From: Escherichia phage KIT03 | Reading direction: 5' to 3' (one strand) | Length of the DNA: 64,000 nt | Sequence record: AP018932 | Part shown: positions 31,649 through 35,664 of the stretch, in pieces | How positions within the stretch are numbered: position 1 is the first letter of the stretch | How the letters are laid out: every line of letters starts with the position of its first letter | Notes under the pieces: model-generated | The model's input: the letters and a program-made list of their open reading frames with translations, nothing else | Told to the model about the DNA's origin: nothing | Databases searched by the model: none | Position numbers and translations under genes: made by a program

Positions 31649-33331
31649 TTAAACCATTACAGTAAATCGACCAACTTTCTTCATTTGAAGATGCTGACCA
31701 TATTCTTGTGGGTCATGGTCTTTATGCGAAATTATAAAAACATTAGTGTTTTTCATTGAATTTATAATATTAGCTACACCTTTAATACCTTCGGCATCAA
31801 ATGACCCATCAAACACTTCATCAAGAATTAATGTACTAATACTAACACCAGATACGATAGAAGCAATATCACGCCAAGTAAATAAAAGAGCAATATCGAT
31901 TCGTGCCTTTTCACCTTCACTAAATGAAGCATAACTAAAATCTTCACGACCACGGGATTTAATTGTCTCATTAAATTCTTCATCTAATGTAAACACATAA
32001 TCCGCTTCCATTATTTTAAGATAATGGTTAATCTGCTTATTGAATAATGGAATGTACTTTTTAATAATAGCACCTTTAATACCAGAATCTTTGAGCATAT
32101 CAGTCAAAATTCCTCGGTGGTATTTTTCCATTACTAAATTAGTTTTTGTCTTAACAATTTTATCAAGTTCTTCTTGAAGCAGTGCTATTTCATCAGCATG
32201 GTCAATAAACTCAGAAGATGCTTTTTCTATAGCTGCTTTAACTTTTTTAGCTTTATCTACCGTCGTGATTAGAGATTGCTTTTTATTGCGAATATCATTT
32301 GCCAACGACTGCTGGGTTTTAATATTATCTCGGTATTCATCAACAAGAACTTTTAAATTATCACGATGTGTTGAAAGCTGTTCAAACGAATGCGTGCATT
32401 CAGAAACTTTATCTTTAATTTTAGAAACAACTTTATCACCGGAACTTAATTGTGACAAGCAGGTTGGACATAATCCACCTTCGTGATACATATTAATGAC
32501 TTTATTATACGAGTCAATTTTTGATTTAATTAAAACTGCTTCTTGACCGATTTTATTAAATGCATCAGTCGGGTCTTCATCCAAAACAATATTAACTAAT
32601 CTTTCATTAGCTTCTTCTATTTCCGATTTTAGCGTTCTAGCTTCTTTTGCCAAATCATCATACATATTTTGTAGACGAGTAAGGTTGTCACCCGTTAATT
32701 TTTTCTGGCGTTCAACGTTATCATTATATATTTTAATTTGTTGGATAATACTATCTTTTTTAACATCAAGCACTTGGTTTTGTGAATTTAATTCACGTAT
32801 TAGCGCTTTATTAAGCTTATCCATTTCAGCTAATGTTCCTACCTCAAGCAGGTCTTCCACAAGCTTTCTTCGCGCAGGGGTCGACAAACCCATGAAAGGG
32901 GTATACCCTGCTGTACCAAGGACAACAATCTGCTTGAAACTGGCATATGACATTCCGATAAGCTGTTCAAATTCTGCTTGGAAATCTTTACTGCTGGCAG
33001 ATTCATTAAGACGTGTACCGTTAACGGTGATTTCGAAAACGTTTGGTTTTTGTCCTCTTTTGATATAATACTTTTTCTCATCATATTCCATCCACAGTTC
33101 AACTAAAAGTTCTTTCTTATTTGTGCTGTTTATTAATTGACCTTTCTTTACATCACGAAATGGCTTGCCAAAAAGCCCAAATGTGATGGCTTCTAACATA
33201 GTAGACTTACCACCGCCATTTCGGCCAGTAATAAGAGTTTTTTGAACCTTATCTAATTGAATGTCAACTCCATTTTGACCAACTGACATTATATTTTTAT
33301 ATTTTACTCTATTAAGTTTAAATGATTTCAT
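31649..33331 (-). CDS. 46: recombination endonuclease subunit gp46 (SbcC/Rad50-like)
   Basis: 560 aa equals recalled T4 gp46 length; Walker A GRNGGGKST, long coiled coil. Confidence 0.9.
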   Translation of the reverse strand: MKSFKLNRVKYKNIMSVGQNGVDIQLDKVQKTLITGRNGGGKSTMLEAITFGLFGKPFRDVKKGQLINSTNKKELLVELWMEYDEKKYYIKRGQKPNVFEITVNGTRLNESASSKDFQAEFEQLIGMSYASFKQIVVLGTAGYTPFMGLSTPARRKLVEDLLEVGTLAEMDKLNKALIRELNSQNQVLDVKKDSIIQQIKIYNDNVERQKKLTGDNLTRLQNMYDDLAKEARTLKSEIEEANERLVNIVLDEDPTDAFNKIGQEAVLIKSKIDSYNKVINMYHEGGLCPTCLSQLSSGDKVVSKIKDKVSECTHSFEQLSTHRDNLKVLVDEYRDNIKTQQSLANDIRNKKQSLITTVDKAKKVKAAIEKASSEFIDHADEIALLQEELDKIVKTKTNLVMEKYHRGILTDMLKDSGIKGAIIKKYIPLFNKQINHYLKIMEADYVFTLDEEFNETIKSRGREDFSYASFSEGEKARIDIALLFTWRDIASIVSGVSISTLILDEVFDGSFDAEGIKGVANIINSMKNTNVFIISHKDHDPQEYGQHLQMKKVGRFTVMV

Positions 33332-33346
33332 TTTGTATCCAATTGT

Positions 33347-34201
33347 TCACAATGAAGAAAATTCTTTAACTAAAGCCTGTAATGAAGCCTCTATTGGATA
33401 TCCATTCTTAACTAACATTTTCCTAAACATTACATGTTTAGGACGATTATATGATATCCACAATTCATACAATTTATCTTTATTATCCCAATGATAGCCT
33501 TTTCGTCGAGATGCTATATGAGCTTTTCTAATCTCCGGATTTTTCCAACTAGCAGCTACTGAATTTGATATAGCTATTTTATATTCAGGTTTTGATAAAG
33601 CAGCACGAACAGCCTTTTGGTGTTTAATTTTATTTTCTTCGTTATTAAACCATTCCCTTGAAGCCATTGAAATTTTTTGTTTTGTTTTAAAATTATTTAA
33701 TCTTTCTTTATTATCTTTCCTATTTTTTGCTACTGAAAAATATTTTAATGCCCTTTCTCTAGCAGCATTTCTATTTTGCGGATTTGAATAATACTGTTGA
33801 AGCCTTTTTGATATTGTGTCACTTACATCTTGTTTTATAAAACTATACTCAGCAGCTATTAAATCAACTTCGGCTAAAGATAAATTTTTATATGTTTTTC
33901 CTGACATCATTCTATTTAAAGCATTTAGCATTTTTCCATTTTTACCTTTTGCTAATAAGAAGTGTGCTTTAAAATGATTAAAATGACTTAAATTAACTAA
34001 ATTCCATGTAGATTTTAAATATTCAGGAAATATTGATTTAGGAAGCACGTGGTGTGCTTCCGTTTTACCTGGAGTTTTAACAGTTGAATTCACAGAAATA
34101 AAATTAATGTAAGACTTGGCGTCTTCTTCACTCAACGCTAATTTTTCAACTAATTCCTTTATTAAAAATTCATCATTAATGTCAAGTTTAAAATTCTTCA
34201 C
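33347..34201 (-). CDS. free-standing HNH homing endonuclease, 284 aa
   Basis: HH...N...H motif (EAHHVLPKSIF...NLVNLSHFNHFKAHF) and basic C-terminal DNA-binding region. Confidence 0.65.
   Translation of the reverse strand: MKNFKLDINDEFLIKELVEKLALSEEDAKSYINFISVNSTVKTPGKTEAHHVLPKSIFPEYLKSTWNLVNLSHFNHFKAHFLLAKGKNGKMLNALNRMMSGKTYKNLSLAEVDLIAAEYSFIKQDVSDTISKRLQQYYSNPQNRNAARERALKYFSVAKNRKDNKERLNNFKTKQKISMASREWFNNEENKIKHQKAVRAALSKPEYKIAISNSVAASWKNPEIRKAHIASRRKGYHWDNKDKLYELWISYNRPKHVMFRKMLVKNGYPIEASLQALVKEFSSL
33347..34201 (-). mobile_element. homing endonuclease gene inserted between genes 46 and 47
   Basis: T4 has only small ORFs here (recalled); N-terminal motif duplicated in next ORF. Confidence 0.5.
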
Positions 34202-34404
34202 AAAAGATTCCTTTTAATGTATCTTTTAGACCATTCTATCATATCATCATAATCTAAAAAGTATTCATCAAATTCAGCCATGCAAACAACGCCTTGTGCT
34301 GCTTTTGATGTGATATAAATTATTCCAACATATCTAGAATCTTCTTCGGTATAATCAATATTTGCTATGAATTCATCATTAATGTCAAATGTCGAAAACT
34401 TCAT
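34198..34404 (-). CDS. hypothetical protein, about 68 aa, starts MKFSTFDINDEF
   Basis: internal Met chosen; N-terminus resembles that of the HNH gene. Confidence 0.4.
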   Translation of the reverse strand: MKFSTFDINDEFIANIDYTEEDSRYVGIIYITSKAAQGVVCMAEFDEYFLDYDDMIEWSKRYIKRNLL

Positions 34405-34648
34405 AGTATGCATCCTTAATACAAGATACAGCCATATCTCGTAATGATTTAGGTGTGTCATTATCTAAAATGTTGAAGTTAAAAGATACAGCCCAGTCAG
34501 TGCAGACTGTAACCTTTTTAATACAATTATCTTCAACCTCTAACGGTTCAAACCAATATTCAATAATTTCTTTATGCCCAATATCATCTTTTACTTCGCA
34601 TTCAAAATGCTGACTCATCATAACATTTTTAAATTCATCAAAAGTCAT
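34385..34648 (-). CDS. hypothetical protein, 87 aa
   Basis: ORF. Confidence 0.45.
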   Translation of the reverse strand: MTFDEFKNVMMSQHFECEVKDDIGHKEIIEYWFEPLEVEDNCIKKVTVCTDWAVSFNFNILDNDTPKSLRDMAVSCIKDAYYEVFDI

Positions 34649-35664
34649 TGTGTTGCCTCTACATATAGCTGATTTGCATATTGAATAAGTGCTTCACGGT
34701 CAGAATCAGTGATGTCTGGAATTGCATTAATATACTCTTCCATTAATGTCTGAAGCGATTGGACTTCAACTTCTTCACTGTCATCTGACTCGACAGAGTT
34801 ATCAATCTTTGACACAACTCGTAATGAATGCACAACTTTCTCTAGTTCAGATTCAAACTTCGTCAGATTTTTGTCTACTTCAGTTACTATAACACGTACT
34901 GATAGATTTGTAAAATCTTTATAGTCAATTTTTCCTTTAAATGGATAATGAATTCTACGATGCCAGGTAGTGTTGTTTGGAATAAATTCCATTCGTTCTG
35001 TTTCTGTATCAAACATCCAGAACCCGCGAGGGTCATTCTCGTCACCTGCAGTTAGTGTCCATGGTGTCCCAATATATCTGACGTTAGCAGCCTCAGAGAT
35101 AGTATGGAAGTGACCAGACCACACTTCTTTATAAGTCTTAAGGAAATCAGGTTCAAGACCGTGAGATTTCATTCCTTTATAAAAATAAAATCCATTCAGT
35201 TCCCAGTGACCAACACAAAAAGAAGCAGATGAAGTTTTGATGTGTTCAAGAATTTCACCAGTATTTTCTTCACACATCCAAGGAATTAAATCAATTAAAC
35301 ATCCGTCAAAATCTACTGTAGTAGGCTTATCATATACTTTAACATTAGGATATTTAGCCAAAAGTTCAGTAGAAGCATTTGGGGTTAAAGTATTTTTAAA
35401 GTGCATATCATGGTTTCCTACAACGGTATGTAGTGTAATACCAGCATCATCAAGCATCTGAACTATTTCACGAGCGAACTCCATAGTTTTATGCGTGATC
35501 GCTTTTCGCACATCAAAAATATCGCCGTATTGAATCCATGTAGTAATTCCATTTTTCTTAGAATATTCTATTGCTTGTTTAATTCCATCCAACTGAATGG
35601 ATTGAATCCACTCATCATCGGCTTTAACACCTAAATGCCAATCACCTAAATTTAAAATTTTCAT
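34645..35664 (-). CDS. 47: recombination nuclease subunit gp47 (Mre11-like)
   Basis: 339 aa equals recalled T4 gp47 length; phosphoesterase motifs. Confidence 0.9.
   Translation of the reverse strand: MKILNLGDWHLGVKADDEWIQSIQLDGIKQAIEYSKKNGITTWIQYGDIFDVRKAITHKTMEFAREIVQMLDDAGITLHTVVGNHDMHFKNTLTPNASTELLAKYPNVKVYDKPTTVDFDGCLIDLIPWMCEENTGEILEHIKTSSASFCVGHWELNGFYFYKGMKSHGLEPDFLKTYKEVWSGHFHTISEAANVRYIGTPWTLTAGDENDPRGFWMFDTETERMEFIPNNTTWHRRIHYPFKGKIDYKDFTNLSVRVIVTEVDKNLTKFESELEKVVHSLRVVSKIDNSVESDDSEEVEVQSLQTLMEEYINAIPDITDSDREALIQYANQLYVEATQ

Follow-up and report, generated by a model that had tools for sequence, protein, structure and literature searches.

The 64,000-nucleotide (nt) stretch of Escherichia phage KIT03 analysed here (AP018932; the window) stems from a T6/RB51-like Tequatrovirus genome that is about 99% identical to phages CM8, PhiZZ23, RB51, and T6, and carries a putative homing endonuclease gene at the start of the recombination gene 46. 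The genes of the locus, like all features described below, lie on the minus strand, in the order gene 47 (34645-35664), gene 46.2 (34385-34648; Pfam T4_Y03C), gene 46.1 (34198-34404; 68 amino acids (aa); Pfam DUF5487, E=2e-49), the endonuclease open reading frame (ORF; 33347-34201), and gene 46 (31649-33331), which is identified by the ORF list and by the T4 and T6 annotations as the gene of a Rad50/SbcC-like recombination nuclease subunit. The endonuclease ORF comprises 284 aa and begins with a GTG that overlaps the stop codon of 46.1 by 4 nt (GTGA); its own stop codon (TGA) is separated from the gene 46 ATG by 15 nt. T4 has 46.2 and 46.1 between genes 47 and 46 and nothing else, just as the first-pass annotation had stated. 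In RefSeq, the records of T6 and many other phages already label the additional ORF 'homing endonuclease'; no publication describing the gene was found in literature searches. A 2010 census of T4-type genomes lists one 'other HNH' gene each for T2, T6, and RB51, its locus not given, and credits T2 with that single putative endonuclease gene (PMC2993671); this is probably the gene described here.

Pairwise alignment of the interval with T4, a check proposed in the first-pass annotation, defines the boundaries of the additional DNA. Identity extends through 46.1 and GTGAAGAATTTTAAACTT, the start of gene 46 in T4 (MKNFKL), is then interrupted by a clean insertion of 870 nt (33314-34183), and resumes at AATAGAGTAAAATAT, from codon 7 of gene 46 onward. 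Relative to T4, the insertion point falls between codons 6 and 7 of an essential gene. On the left, endonuclease-negative genomes match the window only as far as 34184/34185, and on the right their match resumes at 33322; the boundaries can slide by 9 nt because TTTAAACTT is repeated at both ends. The earlier proposal of an endonuclease inserted between genes 46 and 47 is correct in that the gene is extra and absent from T4, but the insertion interrupts gene 46 itself.

The two ends of the insert indicate that the endonuclease has taken over the start of gene 46 and supplied a new one. The original start, consisting of the GTG and codons 2-6 (34184-34201; GTGAAGAATTTTAAACTT), equals T4 gene 46 nt 1-18 together with the sequence upstream, up to the point where T4 identity stops (34184); it now provides codons 1-6 of the endonuclease and forms the left flanking repeat. 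The GTGA overlap with the 46.1 stop is the arrangement of gene 46 in T4 and has been kept by the endonuclease, and the Shine-Dalgarno sequence of gene 46 (AAGGA, 34209-34213) is now used upstream of the endonuclease GTG. At its 3' end (...TCATTGTGAACAATTGGATACAAAATGAAATCATTTAAACTT), the insert contains the endonuclease stop, a 15-nt spacer with a weak GGA Shine-Dalgarno sequence (33338-33340), and a new ATG followed by the remainder of MKSFKL. This rebuilt start (ATGAAATCATTTAAACTT; 33314-33331) forms the right flanking repeat, identical to the left copy at 13 of 18 positions including the last 9 nt (TTTAAACTT), and restores gp46 with one substitution (N3S); ATGAAATCATTTAAA is the native gene 46 start in RB69-type Mosigviruses. 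Two imperfect 18-nt copies of the gene 46 start thus flank the insert in direct orientation. In AT-rich DNA, 9 repeated nucleotides would not be significant alone; the repeat gains its meaning from the reading frames and the T4 breakpoints. The left junction is common to all 70 endonuclease-positive records and the right junction to 69 of them. A resident gene start has indeed been duplicated, as suggested in the first-pass annotation, but it is that of gene 46 and not that of 46.1.

The C-terminus of the endonuclease differs among genera. In the window, the protein ends in ...EFSSL*, 15 nt before gene 46 (33347-33362); the orthologues of Mosigvirus (L003:2270-2304) and Gelderlandvirus (L016:2000-2031) run longer, ending in EFMRKNLSENI* and EFDRRILNENL*, and extend 14 nt into gene 46. 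The spacer in the window (GTGAACAATT) faintly resembles the gene 46 start of Mosigvirus (GTGAAAACATTT) and may be a second, older relic, a likeness that is too weak to claim. Derivation of the insert's 3' tail from the C-terminus of 46.1 was set aside as unsafe, since the Gelderlandvirus orthologue has the same tail in a genome region without any 46.1.

Several lines of evidence support an assignment of the protein, a predicted nuclease, to the free-standing HNH homing endonucleases of the Mob family. PHROG 655 ('homing endonuclease') covers the protein end to end (E=7.8e-45), and the non-curated PHROG 12434 ('HNH endonuclease') matches its N-terminal 130 residues (E=4e-15). T4 MobD aligns with residues 47-281 in BLASTP (30% identity over 243 columns, E=2e-18) with the HNH motif in register, where TEAHHVLPKS...NLVNLSHFNHFKAHFLLAK pairs with TEKHHIIPSC...NLVLLTAREHFIAHWLLAK of MobD; the tblastn matches are genes annotated as mobD, mobC, or Mob-like, and the MobC-like proteins are about 35% identical. 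The motif EAHHVLPKSIF...WNLVNLSHFNHFKAHF, from which the first-pass annotation had recognised the 284-aa ORF as an HNH-type, free-standing homing endonuclease, is part of a catalytic core at residues 47-84 (33950-34063; TEAHHVLPKS...WNLVNLSHFNHFKAHFLLA). Its residues H50, H51, N67, H76, and H80 are invariant in an alignment of eight family members from five different loci, and the succession EAHHVLP...WNLVNL...H76...H80 has the classical HH-N-H-H spacing; zinc cysteines are absent. In an AlphaFold2 model of the first 120 residues (mean predicted local distance difference test score (pLDDT) 83), the motif lies on a strand (47-51), a second strand (68-72), and a helix (73-86), and this beta-beta-alpha unit has a pLDDT of 85-92. 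Foldseek matches of the model in BFVD, a library of predicted viral structures, comprise Mob-like and MobE-like proteins, HNH homing endonucleases including T4 MobC, and 'HNHc' proteins.

The C-terminal half of the endonuclease is poorly modelled. It contains basic NP(E/Q)...K repeats at residues ~139-235, which are NUMOD3-like by eye only, followed by a module shared with MobD. A Foldseek search of the full-length model against the PDB returned only noise, because the C-terminal 140 residues are of low confidence, and searches with the model of the N-terminal domain against solved structures were uninformative. The profiles NUMOD1, NUMOD3, and I-HmuI_NUMOD-like do not match the protein of the window; only the four MobC-like members of the family alignment match I-HmuI_NUMOD-like (8e-5) and NUMOD1 (4e-3).

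The N-terminus of the endonuclease also echoes gene 46.1. The resemblance between the two ORFs and the accompanying DNA repeat at about 34170 and 34370, which the first-pass annotation had pointed out, are real and not explained by chance. The 19-nt sequence TTGACATTAATGATGAATT is present without mismatch at 34167-34185, within the endonuclease, and at 34370-34388, within codons 6-12 of the resident 46.1, and occurs nowhere else in the window, even when 2 mismatches are allowed; the chance expectation is 0.01, and no pair of matches arose in any of 100 shuffles. The 19-mer sits within a 43-nt direct repeat of 77% identity, and both ORFs begin MK.F..DINDEF. The sequence in 46.1, which is the same in the endonuclease-negative phages T4 and RB14, is the apparent source, and the copy of its codons 7-12 (DINDEF) in the endonuclease is read as a relic. 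The endonuclease copy is exact in the window and T6 (19/19 positions), whereas T2 retains 18/19 and the Mosigvirus NRG-P0074 17/19; its changes (one in T2, two in NRG-P0074) are synonymous. Because this copy changes while that in 46.1 remains constant, it appears to drift without being homogenised, as a relic should. The first nine or so residues of the endonuclease, which are unstructured in the AlphaFold2 model, lie outside the first helix, and have lower confidence, fit a borrowed leader.

The two copies of the 19-mer lie 203 nt apart, with all of 46.1 between them, and both are located at or upstream of the left edge of the insert. Since they do not flank the insert, they are not a duplication made by insertion, and the part of the first-pass annotation that attributed the echo to such a duplication does not hold; the echo covers only codons 7-12. 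It is best read as the relic of an earlier in-frame fusion of 46.1 and the endonuclease, because in Mosigvirus the orthologue stands in place of the 46.1 body and its first seven codons are those of 46.1.

The distribution of the endonuclease is patchy. It occurs in only 70 of about 517 Tequatrovirus-like records, which is at odds with a gene shared by all close relatives, and the positives are at least 97.6% identical in protein. Orthologues are present in 10 of the 162 records that match the Mosigvirus locus and in one Gelderlandvirus genome, and the position is always directly upstream of gene 46 in all three genera. In the Mosigviruses pEK20 and AV112, an endonuclease of 42-44% identity separates 46.2 from 46, and there is no 46.1; the endonuclease-negative Mosigviruses RB69, JS09, and WFK have 46.1 in that place. 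The Mosigvirus endonuclease begins with ATGACGAAGACTGAYTATGAAA (MTKTDYE), which equals codons 1-7 of RB69 46.1 and occupies the same position overlapping the end of 46.2. The shared codons and position show that, in this genus, the endonuclease is joined in frame to the beginning of 46.1 and takes the place of its body. The orthologue of Gelderlandvirus UoN_LG358_1 (L016:1189-2031; 43-44% identity) lies between 47 and 46 in the absence of 46.2 and 46.1, and its start overlaps the stop of gene 47 (ATGA). A search of IMG/VR with the alignment of the three genera returned no distant relatives. Most copies are intact over 284 codons; that of T2 is split by a 2-nt deletion (nt 609-610) into ORFs of 204 aa and 85 aa, and those of RB51 and RB68 are broken by a frameshift, with a truncated product in RB68.

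Gene 46 exists in two haplotypes whose differences begin at the insertion point (nt 18). Types A and B differ at 13 positions within 46 nt (nt 18-63) and not at all in nt 1-17 or 64-140. Type A (protein ...KYKNIMSVGQNG...) is found in T4 and in all endonuclease-positive phages; RB14, Ozark, and AdolfPortmann have type B (protein ...RYQNIMSVGGNP...). Mosigvirus has both protein variants as well; in that genus, too, endonuclease-positive phages are type-A-like, and RB69 and JS09 are type B. Among the records, 69 or 70 endonuclease-positives are type A and none is type B; the endonuclease-negatives comprise about 74 of type A and about 360 of type B. From the differences and the allele counts, we infer a nick or cut by the enzyme within nt 18-70 of type-B gene 46, with type A as the co-converted allele that is protected, which would make the patch at nt 18-66 of gene 46 (33266-33314) the target and immunity region.

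Codons 21-22 of gene 46, which contain the endonuclease-linked dinucleotide at 33268-33269, read GGA GTT in all 69 endonuclease-positive type-A records and GGG ATT in T4. Three endonuclease-negative records, including ERS-1 (L014) and CJY920 (PQ349265.1), combine GGA GTT with a T4-type start (GTGAAGAAT); ERS-1 and CJY920 are candidates for a precise loss of the endonuclease via the flanking TTTAAACTT repeats. In the Mosigvirus WFK (L011; gene 46 nt 1-70), which has 46.1 and no endonuclease, a type-A-like patch is combined with the endonuclease-negative start ATGAAATCA. This allele may be resistant, may result from partial conversion, or may represent the lineage that the endonuclease entered.

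The Mosigvirus NRG-P0074 carries a Tequatrovirus-derived patch of about 1.3 kb that comprises the 3' end of 46.2, 46.1, the endonuclease, and approximately the first 110-125 nt of gene 46 (corresponding to 33207-34497 of the window, as delimited by sliding-window identity and variable sites). Outside the patch, through gene 47 and most of 46.2, windows of 50 nt match RB69 at 48-50 positions and the KIT03 sequence at 30-45; inside the patch, they match the KIT03 sequence at 47-50 positions, and the sequence becomes RB69-like again about 110-125 nt into gene 46. The boundaries are sharp, and the endonuclease gene lies near the centre, with flanks of about 310 nt and about 110-125 nt. Because a foreign patch centred on the endonuclease has such short flanks, it is read as a natural co-conversion tract, and the sequence comparison points to a recent homing event between genera. 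The recipient background of NRG-P0074 is RB69-like, i.e., type B, which fits the predicted target. The left boundary of the patch (~34496-34499) adjoins a terminator-like hairpin in the coding strand of 46.2 (34487-34511; 9 pairs, then UCUUUUAACU).

The endonuclease is presumably read from a polycistronic 47-46.2-46.1-46 message that begins upstream of gene 47. No late promoter (TATAAATA) and no convincing MotA-dependent promoter was found in or before the ORF, the single match to a MotA box lacking a correctly spaced -10 element; on the same grounds, internal promoters for gene 46 were rejected. Sigma-70-like sites show no excess over the range of shuffled sequences. Because the GTG overlaps the stop of 46.1, translation of the endonuclease is probably coupled to that of 46.1 and low, as has been proposed for mobE (PMC2988022). 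A masking of the start sites by RNA structure was rejected, since folding around the endonuclease start and around the new gene 46 start does not exceed that of shuffled sequences.

A perfect 8-bp hairpin (GGAAGCAC-ACCAC-GUGCUUCC; 34041-34061) lies in the codons for EAHHVLP; with -13.6 kcal/mol (z=-5.6), it is more stable than any of 200 shuffles, and it scores as terminator-like on the plus strand. The surrounding block of 52 nt has 92% DNA identity to the MobC-like gene of phage F25 (L005:1630-1685), the proteins being about 30-35% identical overall. The hairpin is absent from the more closely related orthologue of Mosigvirus, which also lacks the 52-nt block, and from that of Gelderlandvirus. 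The block could result from gene conversion between paralogous endonuclease genes or represent a conserved nucleic-acid structure.

Other side observations concern 46.1. Its start codon (34404) is ATG in the window, whereas T4, T6, T2, RB14, and NRG-P0074 have GTG, differing only in one A/G exchange. In some records, the annotated start is an ATG further upstream (MHTVKFSTF...).

Taken together, the locus is best explained by a promoter-less Mob-type HNH homing endonuclease cassette that resides in gene 46, targets the 5' end of the same gene, descends from a fusion with 46.1, and is subject to later decay and loss; we assign this explanation as a whole a probability of roughly 0.8. The enzyme would act on genomes that lack the endonuclease, nicking or cutting the 5' end of gene 46, with type-B alleles (around nt 18-66) as the most likely substrates, and recombinational repair from an endonuclease-carrying genome would copy the endonuclease gene together with short flanks, the carrier's own genome being protected by the type-A polymorphisms. 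In the Tequatrovirus ancestor, the endonuclease would have been fused in frame to codons 1-12 of 46.1, comparable to the situation in Mosigvirus today. Unequal recombination at the level of microhomology, or repair with the left end resected to codon 6 of gene 46, could then have joined ...AAACTT of an endonuclease-free genome (gene 46 codon 6) to GACATTAAT... of the ancestor (46.1 codon 7). The predicted product, consisting of a full 46.1, codons 1-6 of gene 46, codons 7-12 of 46.1, the endonuclease, and a new gene 46 start, has the observed order. Such a join would have restored a complete 46.1 upstream and left behind both the DINDEF relic and the duplicated gene 46 start. The copies would subsequently decay, as exemplified by the frameshifts in T2, RB51, and RB68, or might be lost precisely through the flanking direct repeat.

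Several observations weigh against this explanation. The profile search proposed in the first-pass annotation yielded neither an HNH nor a NUMOD domain in Pfam or NCBIfam, where no HNH family matches the endonuclease at E<=1, and only the PHROG profiles responded; the motif peptide by itself matches AHH only, with E=0.15. There is also no significant sequence match in the PDB, even with a family profile. Because the curated domain searches gave no match, the HNH assignment rests on family homology, the motif, and the model. For T4 MobD, too, the Pfam HNH profile gives no more than 18.1 bits, short of the cut-off of 21.4, and the missing match is thus characteristic of the Mob subfamily as a whole. 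The postulated ancestor, with codons 1-12 of 46.1 fused to the endonuclease and no intact 46.1, was not found in the phage collection or, using exact patterns, in IMG/VR and metagenome contigs. The association of the endonuclease with type A could reflect pure linkage and shared descent instead of immunity, because the genomes are closely related and non-independent. T4 is of type A and yet lacks the endonuclease. The insert's 3' tail weakly resembles that of 46.1, which may only reflect the shared Shine-Dalgarno region of gene 46. Literature searches revealed no enzymatic or genetic test of this protein.

An exact 19-nt repeat and the common beginning of both ORFs (MK.F..DINDEF) would also be expected if the endonuclease had inserted beside 46.1 and the insertion had duplicated the start of that gene as a target-site duplication. 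Genuine as the repeat is, the spacing of its copies, neither of which lies across the insert from the other, is incompatible with such an event; the 870-nt insert is flanked instead by copies of the gene 46 start, and it is gene 46, not 46.1, that contributed codons 1-6 of the endonuclease. Moreover, homing by double-strand-break repair makes no target-site duplications (PMC2988022), so that this origin of the echo is very improbable. It is barely conceivable that the echo was kept for a function, either as a shared translation-initiation enhancer or as a recognition or regulatory sequence to which the endonuclease or another factor would bind at both gene starts. Both copies do occupy codons 7-12 counted from a start codon that overlaps the end of the preceding gene, and the lack of structure up to residue ~9 makes it unlikely that the 19-mer is needed for folding. 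However, synonymous changes have accumulated in the endonuclease copy and not in 46.1, the orthologues of Mosigvirus and Gelderlandvirus lack DINDEF, and the RNA of the initiation region folds no more stably than shuffled sequences (z=-0.5).

The endonuclease might also be a fixed remnant that is no longer mobile, kept because its deletion would remove the translation start of gene 46, and distributed by vertical descent and ordinary recombination. The retention of frameshifted copies in T2, RB51, and RB68 is in line with this possibility, the identical junctions and high protein identity of the 70 positives fit a single origin, and embedded host expression signals favour the retention of endonuclease genes (PMC2988022). 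Nevertheless, most copies are intact throughout, and a transfer with short flanks into NRG-P0074, whose background is ~30% divergent, is hard to achieve by unassisted homologous recombination. The 13 clustered substitutions beside the insertion, forming two haplotypes that extend across genera, are the usual mark of an active system of target and immunity (PMC2790892). We therefore consider an immobile remnant unlikely and favour the mobile cassette that captures the start of gene 46.

The type of homing endonuclease and its database label are known, and the mechanism is not of a new kind. The locus is a clean natural example of a cassette that takes over the ribosome-binding site and start of an essential gene and donates a new one, which bears on both its expression and the difficulty of its loss. 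Three architectures at one locus and a datable relic would allow the history of the element to be reconstructed, and the NRG-P0074 mosaic and the gene 46 haplotypes give a precise prediction of the target site and point to natural, endonuclease-driven exchange between phage genera. Since the copy of T2 is broken and that of T6 is intact, the gene may also be relevant to the marker-exclusion genetics of T2, T4, and T6.

A more far-reaching synthesis is possible but decidedly tentative. The lineage may specialise on the first ~70 nt of gene 46 and repeatedly rebuild its own 5' end from whichever host start lies upstream, in which case the capture and donation of starts would be a general route of entry, the haplotypes a balanced polymorphism of susceptible and immune alleles, and NRG-P0074 a natural instance of cross-genus homing. 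If so, the 5' ends would have been rebuilt from 46.1 in Mosigvirus, from gene 46 and a 46.1 relic in Tequatrovirus, and as a start overlapping the gene 47 stop in Gelderlandvirus. The target would be the gene of a Rad50-like subunit that is needed to process the very breaks on which homing depends, and start capture with replacement would let promoter-less cassettes enter coding sequence without killing the host gene. NRG-P0074 would then document natural homing across a genus boundary, contrary to a 2010 review of T4-type genomes, which saw no convincing evidence for the movement of endonuclease genes between genome clusters (PMC2993671).

Among the known systems, T4 MobE, located between nrdA and nrdB, is comparable in layout; by sequence, the measured relatives of the present protein are MobD and MobC-like proteins. 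Both MobE and the present endonuclease combine an N-terminal HNH domain with a variable C-terminal region, lack a promoter, are co-oriented with their neighbours, and have a start that overlaps the stop of the upstream gene. The promoter-less MobE nicks the downstream nrdB at nt 122-126, within a polymorphic patch that differs between phages with and without mobE (Wilson and Edgell 2009, PMC2790892). Its experimentally mapped target is thus located towards the 5' end of the essential gene that follows, as is the target predicted here, and its mobility likewise entails co-conversion of short flanks. Unlike MobE, which lies between genes, the present endonuclease sits within the first codons of its host gene, uses the start of that gene, and supplies a replacement. 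MobE also contains an internal intrinsic terminator, whereas the internal hairpin found here has no U-tract.

The closest relatives by sequence within a characterised family are T4 MobD and the MobC-like proteins; MobC and MobD are listed as untested for activity (PMC2988022, table 1). The match with MobD spans the HNH motif, the basic repeats, and the C-terminal module HW.D.D.LY.LWI..NRPK...GYP. These relatives occupy other loci (nrdC.11/mobD.1 and nrdD/nrdG), and the MobC-like proteins carry C-terminal I-HmuI-type NUMOD-like and NUMOD1 domains, which the protein of the window does not have. Alternative occupancy of one slot has a counterpart in SegH and Hef, which, as Sandegren et al. reportedly described in 2005, replace mobC and mobE in T4 relatives as alternative cassettes at one intergenic position. 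The endonuclease and 46.1 of Mosigvirus are likewise mutually exclusive alleles, but with SegH and Hef two endonuclease genes alternate, whereas here an endonuclease gene alternates with a small DUF5487 gene, and Tequatrovirus has kept both. Finally, mobE of phage Aeh1, which splits nrdA (Friedrich et al. 2007; PMC3045599), is also a free-standing HNH gene within the coding sequence of an essential gene whose function is preserved. In Aeh1, however, the host protein consists of two polypeptides that reassemble, whereas gp46 remains one full-length chain, because only six codons lie upstream of the insert and those are duplicated.

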